Source: a virus
DNA: 64,000 nucleotides
Virus record (IMG/VR): IMGVR_UViG_3300042923_000241
Location: 1-64,000 of that record
Strand: one strand, 5' to 3'
Part shown: positions 1 to 36,298 of the stretch, one piece after another
How the letters are laid out: the number at the start of each line of letters is the position of its first letter
Numbering within the stretch: the first letter of the stretch is position 1
Position numbers and translations under genes: made by a program
The notes under the pieces: model-generated
What the model saw: the letters and a program-made list of their open reading frames with translations, nothing else
Databases searched by the model: none
Told to the model about the DNA's origin: nothing

Positions 1-249
1 AAACAAGAAGCATTGAGAAGCTAAAGAAATTCTCAGTAGTGAGCATCGTTCTGACAAGCGCAATGTACATAGTCAACGGGATTTTTAGCAAAATGGCAGG
101 GGGATAGTATCAGTGTTGCCACTTCCCCTATCCCCTTTGTTCGCTGTTTTTTTATTCGTTTTATCTGGCTTCAAGCCTGTTTTTTATGGTAATGGTTCTC
201 CTATTTGCGGTACAAATATCGGTAGGAATATCGGTATAGGAGGTTTTCA

Positions 250-591
250 ATGAAATTATTTGTCCTGGCGATGCTGATTGTGTTTGTCATGTCCGGCGTA
301 TGCTTGGCAGGTTTTTTTGACAGCGCATCCGATAAAATTAACGAAAAGGTTGATAAACAAGCCGACAAACTAATGACTAAGGTTATCGCTGGCCTAGAGA
401 AAGGATTCGACTGGATTGTTAAGAAAATTTTGGGCTTTATTTATTGGGTGGTTCAAACGCTTGCTGTTGTATCGATTGGTTGGCTGCTGTCGTTGCTGTG
501 CGATCATGATAGCCGGAAAGCTGTGAGAATTTTGGTCATCCTGTGCGCGGTATCGCTAACCATTGATAAGTTGCGTAGTCTGATTAATTAA
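250..591 (+). CDS. Predicted membrane/secreted protein
   Basis: GGAGG RBS, signal-like N-terminus and two hydrophobic segments. Confidence 0.7.
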   Translation: MKLFVLAMLIVFVMSGVCLAGFFDSASDKINEKVDKQADKLMTKVIAGLEKGFDWIVKKILGFIYWVVQTLAVVSIGWLLSLLCDHDSRKAVRILVILCAVSLTIDKLRSLIN

Positions 592-609
592 TATAAAGGA
601 GTGTTTTGA

Positions 610-816
610 ATGGAAAAAATCATACGTTTAGTTAACGAGGTTGCCGAAATGTGTCAGCGCGAAGAAGTTCCATTGCTCTGCATCTATGGCAAAAGCGGTG
701 ATATTGAAGTGAAAGAATATGCGCCGGATGAAACACCGGAAATCTACAGCAAGGCGCGAAGTGTGTTGTTTAACTCGACAAAACCGAAGATGCGGACAAT
801 GAGAATTCAAGGGTAG
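610..816 (+). CDS. Hypothetical protein
   Basis: AAGGAG RBS, 68 aa ORF. Confidence 0.65.
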   Translation: MEKIIRLVNEVAEMCQREEVPLLCIYGKSGDIEVKEYAPDETPEIYSKARSVLFNSTKPKMRTMRIQG

Positions 817-887
817 GTAATCATAACTAAAAGCAAACTTGGCTTCCAGCGATTTGGTAATCTTCTCATCAAAATCTTGACCATATC

Positions 888-936
888 TGACAACATTTTG
901 ACAACATCAAACCGATTTGACAACAATTTGACAACA
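888..936 (+). repeat. Integrase arm-type sites, left arm (4x TGACAACA)
   Basis: TGACAACA at 888, 899, 918 and 929, as two pairs spaced 11 bp apart. Confidence 0.8.
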
Positions 937-1058
937 ATTTGTTGAAATATTTATTAGCATTTGTTAACTAAAAGTAGCCAAATGGAATTATGGTAAATGG
1001 CGTAGTTGTTGGAGAAGTGCCGTTTATCCTTGATTTTACTGGTATCTTTTGCTACCTT

Positions 1059-1111
1059 GCAACGGACTTCTAATCCGTTGGTCGTACGTTCGAATCGTAC
1101 CAGGCGCGCCA
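1059..1111 (+). other. att core: 3' portion of tRNA-Arg(TCT)
   Basis: ACGGA-CTTCTAA-TCCGT anticodon arm, GTACG-TTCGAAT-CGTAC T arm and GCGCGCCA end; no 5' acceptor strand or D arm upstream. Confidence 0.9.
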
Positions 1112-1146
1112 CAGTAACCACAAGGCTTCAAGAGCAATCTTGGAGC

Positions 1147-2439
1147 CTATTTTGTTGTCAAATCCGTTGCTGTTTGACAACAATTTGACAACATGGAAGT
1201 ATTTGTATTTTTTATTTGCTTCATTTTTTCTTCCAGCTTATTGGCAATTCCTTGGCGGTCTTTATAAGTTAAGTGGGTGTAGCGTTGTGCTATTTTAGCG
1301 GTTGCCCACCCTCCTTGTGCTTGTATTTCGTAAGGATGAAAACCTAACCTGAATAGCATAGTGGCGTGAGTGTGGCGCATGTCGTGAAATCGAACGCTCG
1401 GACTCATTCCTGCTTGTAAAGCAAGTTTCTTGAACTGCTTGCTTATTTCATAGTTTGGTATCAGCGAGCCGTCCTCTTGGCAAAATACATAATTGTTGCC
1501 CTGATATTTTATTCCGAATTCATCTTTCTGCTTGTCCTGGACTTCTTTATGCGTTTTTAGCGTCTGTGTGGCATCAGAAGGTAGGTCAAGACGACGATAG
1601 CTGCTGTTTGTCTTTGGCAGAGCATCAATCGTCCCTTGGCGCGTTTGCATAGTTGCTTCTTCGATAACAATAAACCCTTCGTCTAAATCAACGTTATTCC
1701 AACGCAAATTAAGCAATTCGCTTGATCGGCAACCTGTGTACCAAGCAATGACGAAGAATGCATACAATTCATGTTTGCTTGCCAACTCCAAGAATCGTTT
1801 CACTTCTTCGTCTTCAAACGGAACTATTTCGCTTTCGTCTAGTTTTGGTTTGTCAAGTGAAGCACAAGGGTTTTTGTCAACGATCTCAAATTTCACAGCT
1901 TTATCGAATGCAGCGTTGAGCATAACAAACAAATATTGAATTGACCGCTTAGACAACCGTTTGGCGTTCTTAAAATCTTCTTCTGTTGGATTCTTCTTCT
2001 TGCAAACAGGTGAAGACTTTCTCTCTACAAGAAAATCACTAATATGGACAGGTTTAATATCTTTTAGCTTCATGTTGCCTAGTTTCGGCACAACATGAAT
2101 ACGATTCAGCGATTCATAGCGTTCCCACGAATTTGTACGGACGGTATCGACTTTTATTTTATACAACCAATCTTTCATCCATTGCGCTAATGTCATATTG
2201 TCATATTTAGCGGTAGGAGAATTTGCTTGTTTCGCCTTCTCTGCCAGTTCTTCTGTTTCTTTTTTGTAGTTTATTTTGAATTCTTCTCTTTGACGTATTG
2301 CATCCGCTTCGCTAATTGTACTGTAAAGCGTCTTGATTTTCTTTTTTCCTGTTTCTCTTTCAATATATGTGCATGTTTTTGACCATCTGCCGTCTTCTCT
2401 ATTCGGAGGTGGTGCTTTTTCTTTTGCCACAACTTTCAC
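1147..2439 (-). CDS. int: Tyrosine recombinase / phage integrase
   Basis: TGCRSSE (catalytic R), FHDMRHTHAT (HxxR), GW, and RYTH (catalytic Tyr); adjacent to att. Confidence 0.95.
   Translation of the reverse strand: MKVVAKEKAPPPNREDGRWSKTCTYIERETGKKKIKTLYSTISEADAIRQREEFKINYKKETEELAEKAKQANSPTAKYDNMTLAQWMKDWLYKIKVDTVRTNSWERYESLNRIHVVPKLGNMKLKDIKPVHISDFLVERKSSPVCKKKNPTEEDFKNAKRLSKRSIQYLFVMLNAAFDKAVKFEIVDKNPCASLDKPKLDESEIVPFEDEEVKRFLELASKHELYAFFVIAWYTGCRSSELLNLRWNNVDLDEGFIVIEEATMQTRQGTIDALPKTNSSYRRLDLPSDATQTLKTHKEVQDKQKDEFGIKYQGNNYVFCQEDGSLIPNYEISKQFKKLALQAGMSPSVRFHDMRHTHATMLFRLGFHPYEIQAQGGWATAKIAQRYTHLTYKDRQGIANKLEEKMKQIKNTNTSMLSNCCQTATDLTTK
1153..1193 (+). repeat. Integrase arm-type sites, right arm
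   Basis: TGTTGTCA (inverted) at 1153; TGACAACA at 1175 and 1186. Confidence 0.8.
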
Positions 2440-2445
2440 TCCTTG

Positions 2446-2610
2446 CTACGTTGATTTATTTATATTGTGTTTTATCAACAGATCAGCAAAGGCTTCTTCT
2501 GTCAATTTAGAAATAGGGATTCTCGTTTTACTTGACAGTTCGCGAATCTGTTTGGCTTGCTCTTTTGGTATTGTTGTGTTCAGATATTCTCTATATCGTA
2601 ATTCACCCAT
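2446..2610 (-). CDS. Ribbon-helix-helix DNA-binding protein
   Basis: LNTTIPKE...LSSKTRIPISKLTEEAFADLL fits the RHH_3-type pattern; GAGGTGG RBS. Confidence 0.75.
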   Translation of the reverse strand: MGELRYREYLNTTIPKEQAKQIRELSSKTRIPISKLTEEAFADLLIKHNINKST

Positions 2611-2859
2611 TAATAACCACCTCGCCACTACTATACCAAAACAGCAAATTACTGTAAGCTAGTTGTAGCTTGTAGTAGCTTGTGGCAATTAATGATAAAT
2701 GATATGATAAGGGTGTTTTTCGACACGGCTTTTGTATTTATTTGACGAGAATTGTCGAAACATTTTATTCTATGTTAAGCAGGACTTTTGTTCCGTATTG
2801 CGTACTGAATCGACATAAGAGTGTTAAAAATGTTATACTAATTATTTTTTGTCACTATT

Positions 2860-3216
2860 ATGGCGATATTATTCTCCGAGAAGGGAGTCGTTATCGCTAC
2901 TCGTAACAGGATTCGTGACATTCGTTTAAGCAAAGAAATGACGCAAAAAGAATTAGCACGAAAGGCGGGGATGAGCCAGACAACAATATCGGATATGGAA
3001 AACTCAATGGTCAACATTACCGAGAAACAATTAGACAAACTAGCCGACGCTCTTGGCGTTGAAAAAGGGGAGATATTGCTCGACTTATTGAAAGTTTCCG
3101 CAATTATTTTTATACGGGTTGCAGGAATTCTACAGCAAGACACAGAATTGTTTTCAAAGCATTTCATCGAACAAGCGTTCTCCCTGTGGAGGTGTTGTAT
3201 TAATGGTACAACCTGA
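2860..3216 (+). CDS. XRE-family HTH regulator
   Basis: NRIRDIRLSKEMTQKELARKAGMSQTTISDMEN; start uncertain. Confidence 0.8.
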   Translation: MAILFSEKGVVIATRNRIRDIRLSKEMTQKELARKAGMSQTTISDMENSMVNITEKQLDKLADALGVEKGEILLDLLKVSAIIFIRVAGILQQDTELFSKHFIEQAFSLWRCCINGTT

Positions 3217-3335
3217 GTACATCGTCATGCCATTGCGGAACAGAAAATGGGTGTTTAGAGAAGGTGTGTATTTAGTCAATCCGGATTACCTAAAGTTGTT
3301 TTTGTCGTATTTCAAGTAATGAAAAACGCAGGGCT

Positions 3336-3731
3336 TTATCGGCTCTGCGTTTTTCCTTTTAATTGGCGTATTGCTTCTAATTGAATTGCCAATTCTTCTG
3401 GCGTTACGTCGTAGTCGATTGCTCTGTCTATAATTACATCATATGGCGTTCGGGTATCTCTCTTTTGGTCTTCTTCTGGCATTAAATCTCGCAACACAAG
3501 TTTTACGTCATCTTCTGCAAGAAAGTCTAGCGACACGTTTAATACTCTGGCAAGTTTAATTAACGTTTCCAAGCTTGGCTTTTTGCGATCTGTTTCAAGA
3601 TGATTAATAAATGAACGACTTAATCCAACTAGTTTTCCTAATTCTTCTTGCGTCATTTTCTTTTCGTCTCTTGCGTATCGAATCCGCTTTCCCAAAGTTA
3701 AATAGATACTATTAGTACCCAAAACGATCAC
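3336..3731 (-). CDS. XRE-family repressor (CI-like)
   Basis: HTH MTQEELGKLVGLSRSFINHLETDRKKPSLETL; divergent from the lytic operon. Confidence 0.85.
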   Translation of the reverse strand: MIVLGTNSIYLTLGKRIRYARDEKKMTQEELGKLVGLSRSFINHLETDRKKPSLETLIKLARVLNVSLDFLAEDDVKLVLRDLMPEEDQKRDTRTPYDVIIDRAIDYDVTPEELAIQLEAIRQLKGKTQSR

Positions 3732-3830
3732 CCCTAGTTATAATATGCGATATATATGTTATTGTACAAGTTGTAATTTTTTCCTGCGTGACTAAAAGTA
3801 GATTTATTTACATATACTAATAAATTACGC

Positions 3831-3859
3831 TTGACAAAAGATAACCAAGGTAGCATAAT
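3831..3859 (+). promoter_or_regulatory. Sigma-A promoter of the rightward early operon
   Basis: TTGACA-N17-CATAAT. Confidence 0.75.
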
Positions 3860-3951
3860 GTAACCAGAAGCAGAATATAATGGTAAAATACAATCAAAGA
3901 CTTTTATTTTTAGCTAAGAATGCTACCAAAGTAGCAAAAGGAGGTGGTAAT

Positions 3952-4149
3952 GTGGAAAAAATGAACATCGGCACAAAAGAAGCAGCAGAACGCTCCGGAT
4001 TGAGCATTAAGAAGATTCGCGAACTTTGCAAAGTTCCCGGTTTTCCCGCTTTTCTTTCTGGAAAACGCAAAATTCTTATCAATGTTGCGAAGTTTGATAA
4101 GTGGCTAGAAGATAAAGCCGACAGGAGATCAGGGTTTAAGAAGAGTTAA
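3952..4149 (+). CDS. Excisionase-like HTH DNA-binding protein
   Basis: IGTKEAAERSGLSIKKIRELCKVPGFP...FDKWLE; GGAGG RBS. Confidence 0.8.
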   Translation: MEKMNIGTKEAAERSGLSIKKIRELCKVPGFPAFLSGKRKILINVAKFDKWLEDKADRRSGFKKS

Positions 4150-4234
4150 TTTTTTTACAGGCAAACAGGACAGACTCCCTCATTATATTCTATCCCATCC
4201 AAACGGAAAATATACCACCGAAAGGAGAAAAATT

Positions 4235-4444
4235 TTGTCGCCATTATCAGACGAAGAAAACGCCAGACGAGAACGCCTAATTCGACTGGGAATGTCTTAT
4301 CACGATGTAGCAAGAATCTGCGGAGTGAGCCACAGCTCGATTATCGACTGGTGTGAACTGCGAGGAATTAAGTCTATACATAAAGTCGGTGGCCCAAGAA
4401 GAAGTCTTTTCCCAAGTACGGATAAACGTTTTTACGAGGTGTAG
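4235..4444 (+). CDS. Small HTH protein
   Basis: GMSYHDVARICGVSHSSIIDW. Confidence 0.7.
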   Translation: MSPLSDEENARRERLIRLGMSYHDVARICGVSHSSIIDWCELRGIKSIHKVGGPRRSLFPSTDKRFYEV

Positions 4445-4447
4445 AAG

Positions 4448-4921
4448 GTGGATTGGAAAACAAAACTTCGCTCACTTATTGACCCCAAAAAGCCAGCAGC
4501 AGAATCAGAACCCGAACCAACTCAACTAACAGCAAGTCAAGTCATTAACATCGTTTCCGATTTTGTCTATCTTGCTGAAAACATCCAGGCACAGTACGAC
4601 TTCAATTATCAGCAGGTCGGTAACACAGATCAAGAAACATCTGAATTACTACACGAAATTGAGATCATTTCTTTGGACGCTTGTTACGGTTGGAAAATAT
4701 TAAGGGATGTCAAAAAGGTTAGGCAAGACAGGAGGTATTACAAAGATCAAAACGCAGTTATTGGGTATATGGCAAATTATATAAATCAAGATAGTCCACT
4801 AACACGAGAATTACGGAACTTACTAGCACAAATGAACGGCAAGATTGAGTATCAAGCAAACAGAGTTTATCATCCGAAAATCAGACAAGATTTAAGATGT
4901 GCGACAAGGGAGGAAAATTAG
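4448..4921 (+). CDS. Phage hypothetical protein
   Basis: 157 aa ORF within the operon. Confidence 0.7.
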   Translation: MDWKTKLRSLIDPKKPAAESEPEPTQLTASQVINIVSDFVYLAENIQAQYDFNYQQVGNTDQETSELLHEIEIISLDACYGWKILRDVKKVRQDRRYYKDQNAVIGYMANYINQDSPLTRELRNLLAQMNGKIEYQANRVYHPKIRQDLRCATREEN

Positions 4922-5116
4922 TTGGAAGGGTTAGGACTTTGCGGAATATGGCGAGTAAATCCTGTCAAAAAGATTGACGCAATTCAAACAATTGGTCATA
5001 AGGTCTATTGCCCAAACTGCGGAAGTGACCATATTTCAAGAGAACAAAGAACCTGTTTCGGCACTCCTGGTTACATCGTTGAAGCGACTTGTCGAGAGTG
5101 TAAGACTAAGTTTTAG
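4922..5116 (+). CDS. Zinc-ribbon protein
   Basis: CPNC...CREC. Confidence 0.6.
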   Translation: MEGLGLCGIWRVNPVKKIDAIQTIGHKVYCPNCGSDHISREQRTCFGTPGYIVEATCRECKTKF

Positions 5117-5279
5117 GAGGTTAGCATATGTGCATCTGCCGAACCTGCGCTGACTGCAAAATATCCGAATCCGGTCTGAGTTGCAAGCATGGCGAACGTT
5201 GGTGTTCAAGTACGGCGTGTCTGACTTGCACTTGGCACAAAGTTAAGTGCGGACTGTATGTCGAGAGGGAGGACAAGAA

Positions 5280-5552
5280 GTGAACGAAATTGAGAAACTT
5301 GAAAGCGGTGATTTAGCACTTGTAGCATTTTATAAGTGTGGTAGTTATGAATCTGTTGACCCGATTGCAGTCGTTAACCTTGCCAAACTCGGACAAGCCA
5401 CAAAGCGGTACATTGCAGAACTGGCCGAGCATCACAAAACAAGCACTAACGACGATGAGTTTTATCCCTGTCTTGATCTTCTTTATGACGCAGAAGGTTG
5501 TGAAGGTTGCAAACTTGCTGAGATTTGCGGGTTGATTGCGGAGGAAAAATGA
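5280..5552 (+). CDS. Cys-rich protein, paralog of 57097..57270
   Basis: DEFYPCLDL...CEGCKLAEICGLIAE; GGAGG RBS before GTG. Confidence 0.65.
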   Translation: MNEIEKLESGDLALVAFYKCGSYESVDPIAVVNLAKLGQATKRYIAELAEHHKTSTNDDEFYPCLDLLYDAEGCEGCKLAEICGLIAEEK

Positions 5553-6205
5553 TTATCGTCCCGTGGCGAAGCTGCAAAACGCATGATTCAAGAGTTGGAT
5601 AATCCGACGCCAGAACAATTAGAAAAACAAAAGAAGGTCGGCGAGATGGTGAGTGAACTAGCAAGCGTATTTCGGAAAGAGATGACAACCGCAGACAAAT
5701 ACTGTGAGGTCGGAATACCAAAACAGTTATGTTGGTTTTGTCAGAAAAGATATGGAGTTTGCCGACAGTTGACGAAGGAGGACAATCATGGACAATCCAC
5801 TTAGCGGCGCACAAGGACTTGTTAACGGCTTTATCCTAGCATCAGCCTTTTGGATTATCGTCTACGCTCTGTCTCTGTTGTGGTGGAAGTGATGGAATGG
5901 ACTTTGAGGTTTTTGAAGCATTACTAGCGGTTCTGATGATTCCTGCGATGCTGTTTGCGGCGGCATTAGCACAATAGGAGGTAGTAAAATGCCAAGAGTG
6001 CCATTTTATCGGCGCAGAGATTGGTCGGATTGGATTCCCGTATTGTCGGTGTTTTTACTTGGCTTTATTTGCGGGGTGATAGCACTATGGTAAAGAAGTT
6101 TGTTCCTCCGTCAGATGAAGTTAGAAAACTTGCGGTTATGGTGTATGTTTCCGCTTGTCTACGAGAACAGCGAATTGATTTGAGAAAATGGAAGGGGAAA
6201 TAAAA

Positions 6206-6478
6206 ATGTTATCGTCAGTATTCAATCGGTTTTATCAAATTAATGCGATCAAGGCCACGCTTGCTATGTTCGAAGGCAAGGTATCAAAGCGCACACAAGC
6301 GGCATTAGACAAGGCACATTTGATTGTCAGATTGCGTTGCAAGTGCGGTGCTACGGCAACACTCAGAAAGATAAACGGTCAGCATGTTTGCGAACATTGC
6401 GTTGCGAGATTGTCTGACAGGGCACAGCAGTTGTTGACATTGCCGCGCAGAGAACGGCGTAAATTAGGCGTTTGTTAA
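6206..6478 (+). CDS. Zinc-finger hypothetical protein
   Basis: CKC...CEHC. Confidence 0.6.
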   Translation: MLSSVFNRFYQINAIKATLAMFEGKVSKRTQAALDKAHLIVRLRCKCGATATLRKINGQHVCEHCVARLSDRAQQLLTLPRRERRKLGVC

Positions 6479-6501
6479 GAAAAAAATAAGGAGTGGTAGA
6501 A

Positions 6502-6741
6502 ATGACAACATTTGAAAAAGTGCGGGAAATCATCGCAGAGCAGTTGGGTGTAAGTGAAGGCGACGTAAAACTTGAAACTACCTTTGGCGGTGATCTTGGT
6601 TGCGATTCTTTAGATAATGTTGAATTGGTAATGACCTTTGAAGAAGAGTTTGATATTGAGATTCCAGATTGCGACGATGACTTATTCAACAAAACCGTCC
6701 AAGATGCAGTTAACTACATTGAAAAGGAGTGTTCCAAATGA
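6502..6741 (+). CDS. acpP: Acyl carrier protein
   Basis: [15 protein letters not shown]...[26 protein letters not shown]; DSL phosphopantetheine site intact. Confidence 0.92.
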
Positions 6742-7209
6742 AAAAGCACAAAAACGAGTTAGTTGCAAATCCTGGTTGCGAAGATTGTTCAAAGCATTGC
6801 AAATATCAGAAGATGACTACCGTAAAAACTGTTGTTGTCAATGGCAAGTATGGTTGCAATACGTCAAAGGGGTGGTAGACATGAAGTATGTTGCATATGC
6901 GTTTTGGGCGCTTTTCTTGCTCTGCTTGTTATGGGATTCCTTCCCGTTTATGCCAAGTTTGGCGTTGGTTTCTTCTTCGGCAGTATAGGAATGGCAATTC
7001 TTCTTTCGGACGACTAATCAAACGGAGGTAACAGCGAGTGACTACTTCTGATTTTCAAGCAGGTTACAATGCGGCTATCTTTTCGCCAATTCTCAAAGAC
7101 CTATCTGTAGAACAACTCATAGACTGCGCTGTACGTCACATTGCAAGCGGATTTGAACACGATCTTGGTATGGCACAAGGACTATTCGATTTAGCGAGGG
7201 GGAAGGAGA

Positions 7210-7632
7210 ATGGGACGGGTAATTAAGTTTCGCGGTTGGGATACGGTCAAAAAAATAATGTATTCTGCAGAAGAAATGGGTGCAGACGAATTAACACTTA
7301 ATCCGGATGGACGCGGTTTTGTTAATGTCAATTCTTGTTCGCCAAAATTAAGTTTATATTGTCCGCACATCATTCCTTTGGAATCAACTGGACTGGCAGA
7401 CAAATTCGCTGACGAATTGTTTCAGGCAGACTTAGGAAAAGACCTACGTGGCAATCTGTATGAAATTGTTTGGATGGACAGAGAAGCGGGTTGGGGAGCG
7501 AAGAACCTTTCAGATACAGGCGAACATCCTGAATGTAACCCTTGCCGAATCAGTTATGGCTGGTTGAAAATGCAAAGGTTTGAGAAAGTCGGAAACGTTT
7601 ACGAGAATAGTTACCTGCTAGGCGGTGATTAA
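7210..7632 (+). CDS. YopX-family protein
   Basis: IKFRGWD N-terminus, STGL.DK, VGNVYEN..LL C-terminus. Confidence 0.85.
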   Translation: MGRVIKFRGWDTVKKIMYSAEEMGADELTLNPDGRGFVNVNSCSPKLSLYCPHIIPLESTGLADKFADELFQADLGKDLRGNLYEIVWMDREAGWGAKNLSDTGEHPECNPCRISYGWLKMQRFEKVGNVYENSYLLGGD

Positions 7633-7730
7633 ATGTACCGCGAGACAGGCAAACGTGCAAGAAAGATACTCAGCAACGGCAGACATGAAATCTTTGTTGA
7701 GATTTACAAGGAAAATGTGTTGGTCGAAAT

Positions 7731-8276
7731 TTGGTTTGGGAGGAAGGTATCTTGAAATTCAGACTAAAAACACCGGATGAAATCGACTTTTCAAAACTCA
7801 TTAAGTCGTTTCCGAAAGGTTCAAGAATTGGACTATACAGCGATGAAAACATTAACCTTGTAACAAACACGCACTTTATGCTCAATATTAGCGAAGAAAT
7901 GATGTGGCGGTTGCAATGTAAGTTTGAGATTCGCTGGAATAACGGGTGGTATTATGTCGGCGGCGACAACCGGAAAAAGACTGAACAATCAAAAATGATG
8001 GAACTGTATAGTTCTATTACAACCAATCCTGACTTGAAGCCGTTTGAGGTCACTAACTTGCGGACAGACGACTGCGATTTACTAGTTGGAGCAGACGGAT
8101 ACGCTATTGTCCAAACCAAATACATGAACCTATTCTCAGACATTCAGAACATCAAAGCACTAGATCAATGGAGTCCATTTTTGATTAACAACCAACACAT
8201 TGTCACTCCTGTTCGGTATGGCGAAGGAAGTATTGAGAAGTGGTTAAGGCCAATTAAACATGAGACAGCGGTATGA
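7731..8276 (+). CDS. Phage hypothetical protein
   Basis: 181 aa ORF in operon; start uncertain. Confidence 0.6.
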   Translation: MVWEEGILKFRLKTPDEIDFSKLIKSFPKGSRIGLYSDENINLVTNTHFMLNISEEMMWRLQCKFEIRWNNGWYYVGGDNRKKTEQSKMMELYSSITTNPDLKPFEVTNLRTDDCDLLVGADGYAIVQTKYMNLFSDIQNIKALDQWSPFLINNQHIVTPVRYGEGSIEKWLRPIKHETAV

Positions 8277-8883
8277 CATTTTCAATCCTGTTGCGGTGAT
8301 GGAGTTAAAACTACACAGGGACAAGCTATATAGCAAATTAGAACCGCTTTATCTCAGCTTATATTACGAAAAAGACGCAGTAAAATTCAAGTTCCAAGAC
8401 CAGTACATATCAGCATTAGTCAATCAGATTAAGCGGTTGGACAAGCAGTTGGAATCAGTGAATGTTTAAGGGAGGAAGAGAGAAGTGGAACGAAACGATT
8501 GTGATACTTGTAAATACTTAGAAAAATCTTCTATAGAAGAACCTTGCAAAACCTGTTGTGATTATGCGCCAATTGCAATGTTCTCGCGATGGGCAGAACG
8601 GGAGGAACGGAATGAGACTAATTAAAAAACTCTGGCTTTGGCGGTTTGAATTAAAAATCAGCAAAGTCAAAGACAATGAGAAGATCGAGTTTTTGGCAAG
8701 GGAATTACTGAAAGAGTTGGAGGGACAGGGGTATTCATTGAAAAGCACAGACGGTGTTTACGGTGTTGACCTCAGTATATATCCCACTATTAACAACATG
8801 TTTAGAGTTCAAAACTCTTTAGCAGGATGGTTAATCCCTTGCGGTACATATCAACCTGTGATTAAGAAGGAGGTAACGGAATA

Positions 8884-9312
8884 ATGTTTGGTTGGGTTAC
8901 AAGTGACGTTAAGCCTGGTTTTGAGGGCAAGAAGTTTAATGTCGATGACGCAATGCGCCGACTCGAAGAAATAAAAAAAGAAGAAAAAGAAAAGCAACAC
9001 GAACAAGCTCGAAATATTATGGCTTTAGAATCAAAACTACATAAAGTCGAATCGGAATTGGAGATTGCAAAAATTCTTGCCGAGAACTTAATTTATCACA
9101 AGGAAAATGACGAATTATTTCCTACGAAACTCATTCAATTCCGGCAAGCACGGTTAAACAAGAATGACGACGTAGAAATGGTAATTTGTGAGCGTTTCGG
9201 CAAAACGCCATTGATTTGCAAACAAGACGAAGCAATTCAACTTCGCGACTTCCTCTTAAAGCACTTCCCAGTTAATGAAGTTGACATTGAAAAGCCGGAG
9301 GTATCGGAATGA
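8884..9312 (+). CDS. Coiled-coil hypothetical protein
   Basis: GGAGG RBS; abuts or overlaps neighbouring ORFs. Confidence 0.65.
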   Translation: MFGWVTSDVKPGFEGKKFNVDDAMRRLEEIKKEEKEKQHEQARNIMALESKLHKVESELEIAKILAENLIYHKENDELFPTKLIQFRQARLNKNDDVEMVICERFGKTPLICKQDEAIQLRDFLLKHFPVNEVDIEKPEVSE

Positions 9313-9517
9313 GCAAGGCAACTACCGTTAAGGCGTTAATTCTAGCAGAGTCGGCAAGAATTATTGAACTTCTTAATCTGATTCCAGATGAAAATCTCAA
9401 ATACAGCAATTGGGAATATTCAAAAGAAAAAGCTGAATTGAAAGCGAAAATGGCAGAACTTCGGCGAGATACTATTGCGTTAGAAAAGATTCTGTACACC
9501 TACGGAGGTTGCAACGA

Positions 9518-11473
9518 ATGAAATTACTCAGTCTGGTTCTGAAAAACTTCAAAGGCATAAAAGACTTTACTTTGTCGGCAGATGGTGAAAATTTATCAGT
9601 TATGGCTGATAATGCAGTTGGAAAAACTTCACTCTACGATGCCTTTCTCTGGCTCATCACCAACAAAGACAGTCAAGGAAAATCGCTTGACGACTCAATT
9701 AAAACTCGCACGCCAGAAGGCGAACCGCTTCATCATCTTGACCACGAAGCCGAAGCAATTCTTGACCATAACGGCAGAAAGGTTTCGCTGAAAAAGGTTT
9801 ATCACGAGCTTTGGCCTAAGAAGAGAGGTTCGGCGAAAGAATCATTCTCAGGACACGAAACACTACATTTCATTGACGGGGTGCCGAAAAGCAAGAAGGA
9901 ATACGATGCTTTCATTTCCGGTATTGCAAGCGAAGATACGTTCCGTTTACTTACAAATCCCATGTTTTTCAACAGTCAGCTTCATTGGCAAAAGCGCAGA
10001 GAGATTCTTCTTGAAGTCTGCGGTGACATTTCCGATTCAGACGTAATTGCTTCTGATGTAAGACTGAAACCGCTAACGGCTATTCTCAACGGCAGAACTG
10101 TTGATGATGTGAAGAAAGTCATTAAGGCACAACAGAAGAAAGTCAATGACGAGATTGAGAAGATTCCTGGTCTGATTAACGAAAATAACCGCATGATGCC
10201 GGACGTTACCGCTTTGCCTTCAAAGGATATTCTTGCGATTGAAATTGCTACTTTCAGACAACAACAAGCGGATAAACAGCAGGAATTGGCGCGAGTCGAG
10301 AACGGTGGCGAGACTGCTGAATTGACCGTAAAGTTGCGAGAAGCCGAAAGTCGGTTGCTTGATGTTAAAAACAAGTGGCGTGAAGCAAATGAGGACAAGA
10401 CGTTCGCTAAACGGCAAGAATTTAATCGCCTTAACGCTGAACTGTCGAGCGTAAACACAAAAATTGAGCAGAACACTCGCCAACAACAGCACAACACAAA
10501 TCAAATCGAGCGTTGGGAAGTTGAACGCCAAAAGAAACTTGACCAATGGAACGCGGTTCACGCCGAAGTCTTTGAAAAGTCAATCGAATCAGTTTGTCCA
10601 ACTTGCAAGCAAGACTTGCCAGCAGATCAGGTTGAAACGGCGAGAAAGACCGCGCTTGAAGCGTTCAATCTCAGCAAGGCACAACGCAAGGAACGGATTA
10701 GCCTTGACGGCAAGGGAATTCGTGAACAAATCGATTCGTTGACGGCACAGAACAAAACTCTTGGTGCGGAATGGGACGGTTTAAACGACGATGCGGTTGT
10801 CCTGCGAAATAAAATGGCAGAGTTGCATGTTGAGATTAACGAAGTCAAACCTGCCGATTCAGTTGAAACCACGAAAGAATATCAAGGAGTCTTTGCGGAA
10901 ATTGCGGATATCAAAGGGCAAATATTCTTGTTGAACACGAAGAATCAGGAAGTCATTCAGCAAATCAAAACCGATATTGCTACGTTCGGCACAGAAATCG
11001 CCAACAGAAACGCTCAAATCGCTTCACATGACACAGCAGAATCCAATAAAAAGCGTATTGCTGAGTTGGAACAGCAAGAGAAGACGTTGGCTACTGAGTA
11101 TGAACGGTTGGAAGGCGAACTTTTCTTGATTGAGTCCTTTATAAGAGCCAAGGTTGATCTGCTAGAAGAACGTATTAACAGCAAATTCAAGATTGTGAAG
11201 TTTAGGTTGTTCGAGCAAAACATAAATGGTGGAATTTCCGAGATGTGTGAAGCAATGGTTGACGGAAATTCTTTTGGAAAAGGTCTAAACAGAGCAGCCG
11301 AAATAAATGCCGGACTCGATATTATCCGTGTTTTATCGCGGCACTACAACTTTTATCCTCCGACTTGGCTAGATAACTGCGAAGCTATAAGCAGACCGCT
11401 TGAAATGGACTGTCAAGTAATTCGCCTTTACGTTTCCGAAAAAGACAAGACGCTAAGAGTTGTAAAAAGCTAA
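9518..11473 (+). CDS. SMC/Rad50-like AAA ATPase
   Basis: LKNFKGI, Walker A NAVGKTS, long coiled coil with a CPTC hook, Walker B WLDNCE. Confidence 0.9.
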   Translation: MKLLSLVLKNFKGIKDFTLSADGENLSVMADNAVGKTSLYDAFLWLITNKDSQGKSLDDSIKTRTPEGEPLHHLDHEAEAILDHNGRKVSLKKVYHELWPKKRGSAKESFSGHETLHFIDGVPKSKKEYDAFISGIASEDTFRLLTNPMFFNSQLHWQKRREILLEVCGDISDSDVIASDVRLKPLTAILNGRTVDDVKKVIKAQQKKVNDEIEKIPGLINENNRMMPDVTALPSKDILAIEIATFRQQQADKQQELARVENGGETAELTVKLREAESRLLDVKNKWREANEDKTFAKRQEFNRLNAELSSVNTKIEQNTRQQQHNTNQIERWEVERQKKLDQWNAVHAEVFEKSIESVCPTCKQDLPADQVETARKTALEAFNLSKAQRKERISLDGKGIREQIDSLTAQNKTLGAEWDGLNDDAVVLRNKMAELHVEINEVKPADSVETTKEYQGVFAEIADIKGQIFLLNTKNQEVIQQIKTDIATFGTEIANRNAQIASHDTAESNKKRIAELEQQEKTLATEYERLEGELFLIESFIRAKVDLLEERINSKFKIVKFRLFEQNINGGISEMCEAMVDGNSFGKGLNRAAEINAGLDIIRVLSRHYNFYPPTWLDNCEAISRPLEMDCQVIRLYVSEKDKTLRVVKS

Positions 11474-29711: not shown

Positions 29712-30359
29712 CCATGCCGAAATGCTAAAGTTCACAGACGTTTTGCCGAGCGGAAGTAAGGGAGAAAATCGGTAATAAGCGCATTGAGGAAGAACTGGCA
29801 ACTTTCGCCCTCTGTCCAATCAAGCTGATGCTTATGTTTTGGGCAGAGTAGGAGATGCAGGACTGTCACCCTGCCAATGCGCTAAAAACACTACTGCAAA
29901 AGCAGTCCTAACAATACCGTTCCATACGGTTCTAAGATTGGCACAAAGGGCGTTATGCTGATTGGAGCAGGGTTCCGATTACCGGGACGACAGCATAGCA
30001 AGCGCAGGTAGGGTGGGTACTGCGCTAAAAAAGAGCCGTTAAATCGGTAAACAACTAGAAAGCAACTGGCGGAGTGTACACCTTCAACAAATGCAATTGC
30101 TACTGTTGAATGCCGTTAGTTGCGCTGAACAAAATTTGGTTCGGATTTTTACATAGGGGAGTGTTAGCACTTCGCTTTTGGTTTTTGCCGAACCGATTAC
30201 ATCTGGCATTGCCAGCCGGTTAGTCGGAAACCGAGACTGAATTTCGACAATTGGAATTGGAATGTAGTCGGAGTCATGACCGACGAGGGCTTGCCGGAAG
30301 GCATAGCAAGCGGGATGCGTGGATGGGGCTACCCTGCACTTTATATTCGCCATTTACTC
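29684..30359 (+). ncRNA. Candidate large structured non-coding RNA (~680 nt), family unassigned
   Basis: Ends pair (GAGTGTTGGCGAAT / ATTCGCCATTTACTC); dense internal stems; no credible ORF; terminator-like hairpin follows. Confidence 0.65.
29779..29883 (+). ncRNA. tRNA-Gly-like cloverleaf with extended anticodon arm
   Basis: GCGCATTG/CAATGCGC acceptor, D loop AACTGGCAA, GCAGG/CCTGC T stem, TCC triplet; T loop degenerate and no CCA. Confidence 0.5.
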
Positions 30360-30687: not shown

Positions 30688-30876
30688 TTATTTGACGGTC
30701 TGGTTGAGTTGTTCTTTGAAGAAGTTCGCCATGTGCCTTGCAACCTGAGTGGCAAATTCTTCATCTTGCAAAGGTGTTTTTCTGCCAACGTGATCTAGGA
30801 TGTTAATGAGCAGTTTATAATCTTCATCGCCAAGTACAATGACTTTTGAGTTGTTATATGCTGTTACTACTTGCAA
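30688..30876 (-). CDS. Small hypothetical protein (leftward island)
   Basis: AAGGAG RBS. Confidence 0.6.
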   Translation of the reverse strand: MQVVTAYNNSKVIVLGDEDYKLLINILDHVGRKTPLQDEEFATQVARHMANFFKEQLNQTVK

Positions 30877-31788: not shown

Positions 31789-31810
31789 CGCCCCTTTTGA
31801 TTTGTACTCC

Positions 31811-31867
31811 TTGAAATGTGCCAGAAAGTAACTGTTCTGACACGCTTCAAGCGGTACAAAGACCGCT
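31811..31867 (-). repeat. Island RNA hairpin motif, copy 1
   Basis: Minus strand AGCGGTCTTTGTACCGC-TTGAAGCGTGTCAGAA...TTCTGGCACATTTCAA. Confidence 0.7.
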
Positions 31868-31882
31868 TTTATTTACAGCGTC

Positions 31883-32722: not shown

Positions 32723-32750
32723 TTCATTACCTACCTTTCATTTTTACCAT

Positions 32751-32810
32751 TTGTCAAGTGCCTACAAAAAACGTCTGTCTGTAGACCTTTGACAAGAGGT
32801 AAAAACCTCT
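32751..32810 (-). repeat. Island RNA hairpin motif, copy 2
   Basis: Minus strand AGAGGTTTTTACCTC-TTGTCAAAGGTCTACA...TGTAGGCACTTGACAA. Confidence 0.7.
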
Positions 32811-32815
32811 TGAAA

Positions 32816-33049
32816 CTAACGCCGTTTATTAATGAGACAAGATTGGTGACCAAAATAACTGTTGCAATTGTGTTGAGTCCAACCGCCGAGCGTTTGGCCG
32901 TTATGCTCATAATTAAAACTTTCTTCCTCATATTGTGAGTAAACTTCCGAAACCGGCTTTCCACAAACCTCACAGTTACCATATTTGCTGGACGATGCGC
33001 TTTGATTTATTAATCTGTAGCGGTACATTTTTATACCCCCAGTTATCAT
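32816..33049 (-). CDS. Small zinc-binding protein
   Basis: YGNCEVCGK...FGHQSCL. Confidence 0.65.
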   Translation of the reverse strand: MITGGIKMYRYRLINQSASSSKYGNCEVCGKPVSEVYSQYEEESFNYEHNGQTLGGWTQHNCNSYFGHQSCLINKRR

Positions 33050-33878: not shown

Positions 33879-33941
33879 TTGTTTTTCCTCCTTACATTCT
33901 ATGCTTCTTTCAGTAACCTTTTGGAGTAATTTTTTTGCCTC

Positions 33942-33997
33942 CTACTAAATGCCTATACAACTTCAATATAGACACTTAGCAAGCGGCAAAAACCGCT
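33942..33997 (-). repeat. Island RNA hairpin motif, copy 3
   Basis: Minus strand AGCGGTTTTTGCCGC-TTGCTAAGTGTCTATA...TATAGGCATTTAGTAG. Confidence 0.7.
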
Positions 33998-34001
33998 GCT
34001 T

Positions 34002-34379
34002 TTAAGCTGCTTTTCTGTATGTGTCGAGATAAAATTCTAAGTCTGCCGGAGATATGTCGTTATTAATTGCCTTGTCAATAACTACAGTGTAAGGCGTGCG
34101 TTTGTCGTTTATCGGCAGATAGTCCTGCATAATTAGCTTAGATTCATCATCGGCTAACCAATTGAGAGAAACGCCGAGTATTTTCGCTAACTTAATAAGT
34201 GTTTCTAAACTGGGTTTCTTTCTGTCTGTTTCGAGGTGGTTCACGAATGAACGACTAAGCCTGAGTGCCTTGCCGAGTTCTTCCTGTGTAAGGTCTAGTT
34301 GCTTTCTAGCAAGATGGATTCTTTCGCCGAGTGACATATAGTCGATTGATGTGTTAATTCCTCTTTGACATAGCTTCAT
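34002..34379 (-). CDS. XRE repressor paralog of 3336..3731
   Basis: TQEELGK..LSRSFVNHLETDRKKPSLETLIKLA; shared RTPY.V.ID.AI tail. Confidence 0.88.
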   Translation of the reverse strand: MKLCQRGINTSIDYMSLGERIHLARKQLDLTQEELGKALRLSRSFVNHLETDRKKPSLETLIKLAKILGVSLNWLADDESKLIMQDYLPINDKRTPYTVVIDKAINNDISPADLEFYLDTYRKAA

Positions 34380-34544
34380 TGTTCAATACCTCCATTGATA
34401 TATTTTAATTTGTCATATTGTTATTTAAGGTGTGTTTTGTGTCAACTAGCAAAAACCTGCTTTTCCTACGCGAGTAGTATTCAGTCCTGGAATCTGCTAG
34501 TGGACACGTTGCGGCTTTGCAGTTAGTCGCCAACTATAAGGGTT

Positions 34545-34597
34545 CCTGCTATCGCCTTTACTCGCGGACTTTAGACCGCCGTTGGTAGGGTTACAGG
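34545..34597 (-). ncRNA. Twister ribozyme, type P1
   Basis: CCTG-TAA-CCCT-AC-CAACG-GCGG-T-CTA-AA-GT-CCGC-GAGTAA-AGGC-GA-TAG-CAGG; P1, P2, P4 and both pseudoknots (CTA/TAG, AC/GT) pair. Confidence 0.8.
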
Positions 34598-34656
34598 GAG
34601 CCGAGTTAATCGGCTTGATGCCAGAGAGATACAGGCGGTTAGCCATGTACTCTGCG

Positions 34657-34887
34657 TTAGTAAATCGAGTTTATCAACTCTTGTATGTGGCTATTGTATT
34701 CTTTACTCTTTTGCTCTACAAAAGCATCTTCTAAGCTGTCATCGTTCCACAGTGCAGAGTCCATTTTCTGTAGTTCTGCGATTTCTGTTTTTACTTTTTG
34801 CTCAGTCTTTTTATCTACACTAATTTTTGCTCTGTTTGCTAATTGACGTTGCCAGTGTATCCTCATAAATGTTTCGCCAGTTGCCAT
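34657..34887 (-). CDS. 76-aa hypothetical protein bracketed by twister ribozymes
   Basis: AAAGGAG RBS before the ATG at 34887 (MATGETFMRIHW...). Confidence 0.75.
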   Translation of the reverse strand: MATGETFMRIHWQRQLANRAKISVDKKTEQKVKTEIAELQKMDSALWNDDSLEDAFVEQKSKEYNSHIQELINSIY

Positions 34888-34904
34888 AGACTTAACTCCT
34901 TTCG

Positions 34905-34958
34905 GCAGGACTTGTGACCTGCTCCTGTGCATTACCGGCCCGAAGGCCGTCACTCTGC
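34905..34958 (-). ncRNA. Twister ribozyme, circularly permuted (P5-type order)
   Basis: GCA-GA-GTG-A-CGGCC-TTCG-GGCCG-G-TAA-TGC-AC-AGGA-GCAGG-T-CAC-AA-GT-CCTGC; pseudoknots CAC/GTG and AC/GT pair; no clear P5 stem. Confidence 0.75.
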
Positions 34959-35165
34959 GATTAGCTCAAAGTGTGGAATGTCATAGTCTGAATAGCAAAA
35001 CTGCTGAATTTTACCTATTTCCATTGCGGCCTTTAACTCAGGGTCTTCATTAGCCAGAGCTTTAAGCCACTTGCTAATAGTAACCGCCATCGGATCAAAT
35101 GCTGAGTTTCTGCATCTCTGGAAAACAATATTGTTTATGTTATTAACTTTTTCTTGCAATGTCAT
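34950..35165 (-). CDS. First gene of the leftward island, hypothetical
   Basis: GGAGG/AAGGA RBS directly after the promoter. Confidence 0.7.
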   Translation of the reverse strand: MTLQEKVNNINNIVFQRCRNSAFDPMAVTISKWLKALANEDPELKAAMEIGKIQQFCYSDYDIPHFELIAE

Positions 35166-35211: not shown

Positions 35212-35240
35212 AGTATAGCATAAGTGCTAGCACAATGCAA
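35212..35240 (-). promoter_or_regulatory. Strong sigma-A promoter with palindromic operator
   Basis: TTGCAT-N17-TATACT with extended TG; GTGCTAGCAC palindrome at 35224-35233 in the spacer. Confidence 0.75.
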
Positions 35241-35454: not shown

Positions 35455-36298
35455 GCTGTCACCTCATACAGATTAGAGTATTAGCTCAATGATAGCACTT
35501 TGTTAGCATGTTGGCAAGAGGTTGCTAGTAATGGTATTTTGGTGGCTGGCAGCATATAAGAATAGAGAGGGAGATAAGGCAATATGATTGATCGTAACAA
35601 ATATCCTATATTGGGTTATGCGCCTGGGGATTATTTCTGTATATGCTGTATCTGTAACCAACAGTTTATAGGCGATAAGAGAGCAGTACACTGTGAGCCT
35701 TGTGCTGTTAAGGGGCAACAGAGACTGATAGAGAATAGTATGGGGGCAGGGATATAATGATCGACCACATAACGAATAACATAATGAATAACATTACAAC
35801 AATAAATGATGGGTTTAATAAATACCCACTACTATACGCATTGATTATTTTGCTCTTTATTTCTCCAATCATTGGAGATGACGACTTCGATTAAATTGTT
35901 TGCGGATTAGACACAATTTAGATGTGGTTGAGAAATGTTAAAACGGATAGTTTAAATGAGTGTTTAAAAACAAATGCTATTCATCGCGTTTCCTACCATG
36001 TGTATTGTCAAGTAAAACTACTTGACACCTATATATTTTATATTGTCAAGTAAAAGCGGTTTACGGACACAGCCTAGCATCAAACTAAAGTGGCATATCG
36101 CACACTTGACGCTCGGTTAATCAGATCAAAGTCACACTAAGCAGCAGTATTTGTAGTGTCAGCCGTGGACATTGCCTGATTTTACTTGTTATTGTTAACA
36201 CATAATCATAGTAAACCCTGCAAGCCTTGATATTGCTGGATTCGTCTGTTTACACAATCAATATTATCGGACGCAAACAGTTGTTCTGATTAATGCAA

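Follow-up and report, generated by a model that had tools for sequence, protein, structure and literature searches.

Self-cleaving ribozymes that punctuate phage genes have been described before, and hammerhead ribozymes are the closest case. Perreault et al. (2011) found that hammerheads flank individual prophage genes and proposed that they process transcripts into single-gene mRNAs, whereas spliced or circular products, which were also raised, went undetected (PMC3088659). The idea of circular products from ribozyme-flanked prophage genes is already old. A 2019 review repeats the processing idea and notes that ribozymes occur near one another and near phage genes, while describing the functions of bacterial ribozymes as largely elusive (PMC6765202). 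In the glmS ribozyme of Gram-positive bacteria, self-cleavage of an mRNA likewise yields a downstream fragment with a 5′-OH end, the fate of which is set by cellular RNases (PMC6765202). Twisters (Rfam clan CL00120; RF02684, RF03160) are characterized by a UAA cleavage loop, a P2 stem, a P4 stem with a GU...AAG.C loop, and two pseudoknots. In the engineered Tornado system two of them flank an insert, the upstream twister being of the P3 type and the downstream one of the P1 type and almost entirely removed. Tornado-type constructs give translated circular mRNAs in Escherichia coli with native RtcB (PMC12628768), so that the chemistry of circle formation from such ends is feasible.

The locus described here lies in a window (the whole stretch of DNA that was analysed, 64,000 nucleotides) that forms part of a complete 77.8-kb IMG/VR phage with direct terminal repeats. 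The phage carries an integrase, a Mu-like large terminase, a portal and recombination genes, and its DNA is contained in sequencing runs of soil metagenomes. No RNA run was listed among them, and one run labelled RNA-Seq is probably DNA; contigs from four runs gave no joints, a result without bearing on expression. A DNA-level search against known phages gave zero matches; identity to known phages does not exceed 39%, with Mu-like phages of Bacillota as the best matches. The sole long minus-strand block of the window is a leftward operon of ∼15 small genes, within which two twisters bracket one short gene. In the direction of transcription, the features of this region are as follows.

35489–35517, minus strand: promoter-like site TTGCCA-17-TATCAT with TG, the best upstream of the cassette
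near 35220–35212, minus strand: second upstream promoter candidate, TGcTATACT, read by eye
34950–35165, minus strand: ORF A, 71 aa, of no known family, with its stop codon inside twister 1
34906–34959, minus strand: twister 1, type P5 (Rfam Twister-P5, RF02684), predicted cut U34934 / A34933
34896–34902, minus strand: ribosome-binding site AAAGGAG, beginning 4 nt past P4 of twister 1
34657–34887, minus strand: ORF B, 76 aa, bracketed by twisters 1 and 2
34599–34615, minus strand: hairpin AGCCGA-UUAAC-UCGGCU, then CCCUGU, near the 3′ end of the predicted excised RNA and present in its minimum-energy and centroid folds
34544–34598, minus strand: twister 2, type P1 without P3, CUA/UAG-T1 variant (custom covariance model), predicted cut U34593 / A34592
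34417–34445, minus strand: promoter-like site TTGACA-17-AACAAT between twister 2 and the XRE gene, a consensus match only
34002–34379, minus strand: ORF C, 125 aa, XRE/cI-type helix-turn-helix (Pfam HTH_3, 1.1e-17), the first gene past twister 2

As in the hammerhead clusters of prophages, same-strand self-cleaving ribozymes here occupy short intergenic gaps and bracket single genes or short blocks of varying identity, and the role proposed for both is the processing of multi-gene RNA. Unlike those clusters, the window has two twisters that differ in permutation (P5 then P1) and in pseudoknot variants, and it has one pair rather than a long array. Both elements share the cleavage loop, P2, P4 and two pseudoknots of the twister class; element 2 departs from the Rfam P1 twisters in its T1 (CUA/UAG) and T2 (AC/GU), in the absence of P3, in a P2 mismatch and in scoring far below threshold. 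The parallel with Tornado extends to the two flanking twisters, the downstream P1 type that would be almost entirely removed, the predicted 5′-OH and 2′,3′-cyclic phosphate ends and some end complementarity, whereas the upstream twister of the window is of the P5 type and its short, interrupted end stem falls within background. Compared with glmS, which is metabolite-activated and belongs to one specific 5′ UTR, the window gives no hint of a ligand.

Twister 1 matches RF02684 across the full model (model positions 1–58) with 52.2 bits, above the gathering score of 37.6 (E 5.7e-08 for the whole window). Both of its pseudoknots are complementary (T1 CAC/GUG, T2 AC/GU), a combination shared with many P5 relatives, and its P1 is the hairpin CGGCC-UUCG-GGCCG. 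The element is closely interleaved with the flanking genes: the UGA stop of ORF A (34952–34950) falls within the GAGUGA strand of the ribozyme, the core of the ribosome-binding site (AGGAG, 34900–34896) lies 6 nt past P4, and the AUG of ORF B lies 18 nt past P4. In most of 38 non-redundant P5-type twisters, a set that includes twister 1 and whose flanks were inspected by eye, an RBS-like tract and a start codon likewise follow 16–38 nt past P4; a strict RBS pattern recovers 23 of the 38, and a stop codon stands directly 5′ of many. Such a position, past a stop and ahead of an RBS with its start codon, agrees with a role at the junction of two genes.

Twister 2 reaches 24.1 bits against the Rfam twister-P1 model (RF03160; 34597–34545, minus strand; E 0.04 in a 2.5-kb scan), below the gathering score of 67.2, and was not detected in a whole-genome Rfam scan. 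Where it differs from the consensus, the changes compensate one another: L4 has the sequence GUCUAAAGUC, CUA pairs with UAG in T1, with GAUAG replacing GAGGG, and AC pairs with GU in T2. The same variant was retrieved from other phage contigs with a 14-mer of the P4/L4 region, and a custom covariance model that excluded the window was built from 15 variant twisters of three of these contigs. On both strands of the 64 kb this model gives a single match, at 34598–34544 on the minus strand (50.7 bits, E 2.7e-12). In a 22-member alignment, 19 rows of which come from one contig and which was fitted to the model, 90.3% of the cells are paired against 69.2% on shuffling, a level that none of 500 shuffles reaches, and sliding the partners by 1–3 columns leaves 23–43% paired. 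Covariation within the variant subfamily extends over P1, P2, P4 and both pseudoknots, with 15 of 17 pairs changing on both sides, T1 and T2 included. The pseudoknots of the subfamily are CUA/UAG for T1 and AC/GU or GC/GC for T2. All 14 members scanned, that of the window among them, fall below the threshold of the Rfam P1 model, so that threshold-based surveys would miss the subfamily. A relaxed twister descriptor, which returned 102 control matches vs 164 real ones, was discarded, and a strict descriptor was used instead together with the covariance models. As judged from their sequences, both elements are credible twisters with predicted self-cleavage, and the original prediction that two minus-strand twisters flank a 76-codon ORF and its ribosome-binding site is borne out. 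In two contigs that carry variant twisters, near-threshold matches to the HDV-like ribozyme of F. prausnitzii (gathering score 44) were also seen, at L014:8676–8745 on the minus strand (42.7 bits) and at L053:8501–8572 on the plus strand (38.8 bits), each on the same strand as the variant twisters and 1.2–2.3 kb from them.

One alternative is that only twister 1 is active and twister 2 is a decaying copy, in which case a single cut upstream of ORF B would leave ORF B joined to the XRE gene. We regard this as unlikely. Twister 2 does carry a C-C mismatch at the first P2 pair, adjoining the cleavage loop, where it is the sole mismatched member of the 22-row alignment, and with it come a short 4-bp P1, the lack of P3 and the score far under the Rfam gathering value; the mismatch also counts against the processing reading developed below. 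However, three P2 pairs remain, and both pseudoknots are intact and fully complementary. In an in-vitro screen of ∼2,600 natural twisters, imperfections in P1 and P2 were tolerated and P1 was dispensable, whereas imperfections in pseudoknot 1 were not tolerated (PMC11662667). The 50.7 bits obtained with the variant model speak against decay as well, as does the sequence from 34000 to 34927, which is identical in a second soil sample.

The reading that we prefer, with a probability of about 0.7, is that a leftward multi-gene transcript is processed between its genes at the twisters, which release a linear mRNA and separate upstream transcription from the XRE gene. Each twister would fold during transcription and then cut itself. 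The cut in twister 1, 16 nt past the last base of the ORF A stop, would leave the ORF A RNA with a 3′ terminus composed of the GC-rich P1 hairpin and a U bearing a 2′,3′-cyclic phosphate, and the ORF B RNA would open with a 5′-OH followed by the P4 hairpin, the ribosome-binding site and the AUG. The cut in twister 2, 63 nt past the ORF B stop, would give the ORF B RNA a 3′ terminus of a small hairpin, for which a protective role may be inferred from the predicted folds, and then CCCUGU. The downstream RNA, with the XRE repressor-like gene and the remainder of the operon, would start with a folded ribozyme and a 5′-OH. The net product would thus be a linear single-gene mRNA of 341 nt with stability and translation uncoupled from those of its neighbours, and upstream transcription would be decoupled from the repressor-like gene, which has its own promoter-like site. 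We infer both the cleavage and its effects on stability and translation; the benefit of such processing has never been demonstrated for any phage array (PMC6765202). In support of processing, the first minus-strand terminator-like site after the upstream promoter-like sites is a weak one ∼2 kb past the cassette (32455–32439), and it is the sole such site near the cassette before the strongest downstream one at 30701–30680.

Two further elements were noted in this part of the window. An intergenic motif occurs in three copies in the same leftward operon (31800–31880, 32740–32820 and 33930–34010, minus strand), and consists of a hairpin, GCGG-UUUUUG-CCGC, to which a second stem is fused; Rfam contains no credible match (best E 1.8), and the motif could represent further processing sites in the same transcript, e.g. 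for RNase III. The Rfam skipping-rope RNA (RF02924) is found on the plus strand at 29779–29882, with 45.7 bits (gathering score 36.7).

The recurrence of this layout in other phages is shown by the sequences, as are both ribozyme folds and their positions relative to stops and ribosome-binding sites. Same-strand ribozymes in intergenic gaps that bracket a single gene, the arrangement of ribozyme-punctuated phage operons, are present in the window, and at least 12 other phage contigs contain twisters paired or arrayed on one strand. These supplied 36 twister-bounded segments, 25 of which hold a single ORF; nine of the single-ORF segments, 277–363 nt long with ORFs of 65–105 aa, are similar to the cassette of the window. 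One contig, L005 (IMGVR_UViG_3300046719_000027, plus strand, 31–11100), has an array of ∼20 twisters (19 P1, one P5) in 11.3 kb at a spacing of 277–1488 nt, most of them bracketing one ORF, and this array reaches the contig end. No covariation across ribozymes was found between neighbouring P1 stems of this array. Ahead of many of its P1-type twisters (e.g. in the 20 nt before the cuts near 1434, 4322 and 4908) the P1 3′ strand is duplicated 5′ of the P1 5′ strand (CAGUU-CGA-AACUG-U), such that a terminal hairpin could form at the 3′ end released by cleavage and might stabilize it. A 60.4-kb phage with terminal repeats carries a twister-P1, a pistol, a twister-sister and two twister-P5 ribozymes on one strand (L103:378–3408, minus); what the classes of this mixed array have in common is cleavage, not a shared rejoining route.

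The genes themselves do not appear to be bound to the twisters. ORF A has one relative, 46% identical, in a contig (L002) with zero ribozyme matches. ORF B belongs to an unnamed family of small helical proteins with the conserved pattern MATGENF...VDKKTEQKI...LIDSMY, to which no function could be assigned from Pfam, PHROGs, PDB sequences or the ESM Atlas. A word-indexed search gave no relatives of ORF B, and a full HMMER search gave 21 of similar length at 36–59% identity; in viral contigs none was found with either a single query or an alignment query. The two ORF B homologues that could be located (L114 and L115) have no twister and no Rfam ribozyme at E values up to 1. Since homologues of ORFs A and B occur without twisters, the twisters are not tied to these genes, and the sequence comparison suggests that the ribozymes are interchangeable punctuation rather than a device specific to ORF B. 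Both located homologues are flanked on each side by a GC-rich hairpin motif, AAGGCC-GCCGG-loop-CCGGC-GCUAGAA (L114:1222–1262 and 1506–1546; L115:8–48 and 322–362), which has no Rfam match at E values up to 1 and may represent a further type of processing element. From the 3′ end of ORF B, 74 nt (34656–34729) recur at ∼87% identity in higher-depth contigs of three soil runs, with unrelated flanks.

As both elements are credible twisters, excision of a one-gene RNA with a 5′-OH and a 2′,3′-cyclic phosphate would be expected; counting agrees with the predicted cuts between 34934 and 34933 and between 34593 and 34592, with a 341-nt product and with the ORF at 34887–34657. The original prediction went further and proposed that complementary ends allow this RNA to be circularized. 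The two arms concerned are as follows.

34921–34928, minus strand: 5′ arm of the end stem, ACAGGAGC, made up of the T2 strand of twister 1, a linker and the first P4 base
34593–34601, minus strand: 3′ arm of the end stem, GCUCCCUGU, in which CCUG is the P1 5′ strand of twister 2 and the final U is the cleavage nucleotide

The predicted complementarity is indeed found: ACAGG-AGC pairs with GCU-C-CCUGU in a stem of 8 bp with one bulge at −10.9 kcal/mol (−12.1 kcal/mol for 20 nt vs 20 nt), present in both the minimum-energy and the centroid fold of the excised RNA. Random phage 20-mers equal this stem in 1.7% of cases against the true 3′ end and in 7% against the true 5′ end. Among unrelated end pairs (5′ ends of 32 P5 by 3′ ends of 21 P1 twisters, with unrelated source phages in almost every pair and one uncorrected L005 cut site) 12% are as strong, and 10% of random 341-nt windows of the operon have as many end-to-end pairs (observed 4.65, null median 0.92). 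The p values of the four controls are thus ∼0.02–0.12 (lowest 0.017). The nucleotides of the stem are, moreover, largely typical of the ribozymes: members of the P5 subfamily of twister 1 often have ACAG(G) after UAAUGC, and CUGU is the usual P1 strand and cleavage U of the P1 subfamily; the stem core is therefore a by-product of ribozyme sequence. The end stem is near background and not clearly beyond chance. Its position in the upper tail of the controls nevertheless counts against simple processing, and an extra role for the ends is possible.

End pairing in the other twister-bounded segments was compared in the same terms. True ends average −6.5 kcal/mol vs −6.0 kcal/mol for mismatched ends in P1-P1 segments (n = 16) and −11.1 vs −10.9 kcal/mol in P5-P5 segments (n = 17); this test, like that of the unrelated pairs, used the one L005 cut site that was corrected in later tests. 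Against windows shifted by 50–130 nt, true ends have a mean of 2.1 vs 1.7 predicted pairs (n = 17, the window included). The comparison cassettes are analogous to that of the window rather than homologous, which limits the reach of these end-pairing tests, and taken with that limit they argue against end complementarity as a designed feature of cassettes bounded by twisters. A check of related phages for conserved flanking twisters and end stems had been proposed with the original prediction, and it turned out against the circle: the two located ORF B homologues have no twisters and the analogous cassettes show no excess of end pairing, the latter being the outcome named beforehand as pointing to simple mRNA processing.

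That the ends of the 341-nt RNA pair through ACAGGAGC and GCUCCCUGU and are ligated by a host RtcB into a circular, exonuclease-resistant mRNA for ORF B is, on this evidence, very unlikely, although several features are as such a circle would need them. The end chemistry is right if both ribozymes cut, the stem is retained in both predicted folds and pairs better than all six of its own shifted controls (predicted pairs), and the circle would be immune to recutting because it would retain no more than one half of twister 1 and 5 nt from twister 2; translated Tornado circles in E. coli with native RtcB provide the precedent (PMC12628768). Against these points stand the background level of the stem, the origin of its core in nucleotides common in each ribozyme subfamily and the lack of any excess of true-end pairing elsewhere, while mixed-class arrays and twister-free ORF B homologues oppose a gene-specific device. 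The phage encodes neither RtcB nor an Rnl-type RNA ligase nor LigT. Circles were sought by Perreault et al. from hammerhead-flanked prophage genes and none were found (PMC3088659). Continuous translation around the circle would bring no gain, because ORF B has its own stop and 341 is not a multiple of 3. As to the host, a terminase scan of genome contigs found nothing and the phage has no tRNAs; a twister-P5 match occurs in 2 of 150 sampled genomes, and a Bacillota MAG with a variant twister (L113), which is not the host of the phage and may be incomplete, has no RtcB match. Self-ligation through a twister rebuilt from both ends was also considered; it is geometrically possible in P5-to-P5 segments and impossible in the cassette of the window, because the upstream fragment takes with it three parts of twister 1, namely the P2 3′ strand, GAGUG and P1. 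Of the proposed excision and circularization, the excision therefore stands, with twister cuts expected and the chemistry feasible, whereas the circle, with a stem at background, no excess in comparable cassettes and no phage ligase, is not supported by present evidence.

It is also conceivable, though we consider it the least probable of the readings, that the ribozyme cores act mainly at the DNA level, as shared gene-boundary sequences for recombination or the swapping of single-gene cassettes, with RNA cleavage secondary; this would be compatible with processing. A 34-nt core of twister 1 (34929–34962) is nearly unchanged in several contigs from two other samples, unlike its flanks, and twisters enclose different genes in different phages, relatives of ORFs A and B occurring without twisters. 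Covariation, on the other hand, preserves the RNA fold including the pseudoknots, which implies selection on the RNA and not merely on DNA identity. Assemblies break at the 34-nt core, and conserved ribozyme cores might serve as recombination or mosaic boundaries.

Processing of the leftward transcript into linear single-gene messages would, by analogy with the hammerhead prophage clusters, match a known phage habit in which long early messages are cut into single-gene pieces. The analysis newly documents a twister subfamily with a CUA/UAG T1 that scores below threshold in the Rfam P1 model. Consistent with the original prediction, no natural phage example of a ribozyme-made circular mRNA was found in the literature searched; should the circle exist after all, which we hold to be very improbable, it would be the first, and ribozyme-bounded phage cassettes in general might yield circles. 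With two twister architectures and one 76-codon gene in 341 nt, the cassette is a compact and clean test-bed for the question of whether such ribozymes merely cut multi-gene RNA, tune its stability and translation, or feed a ligase.
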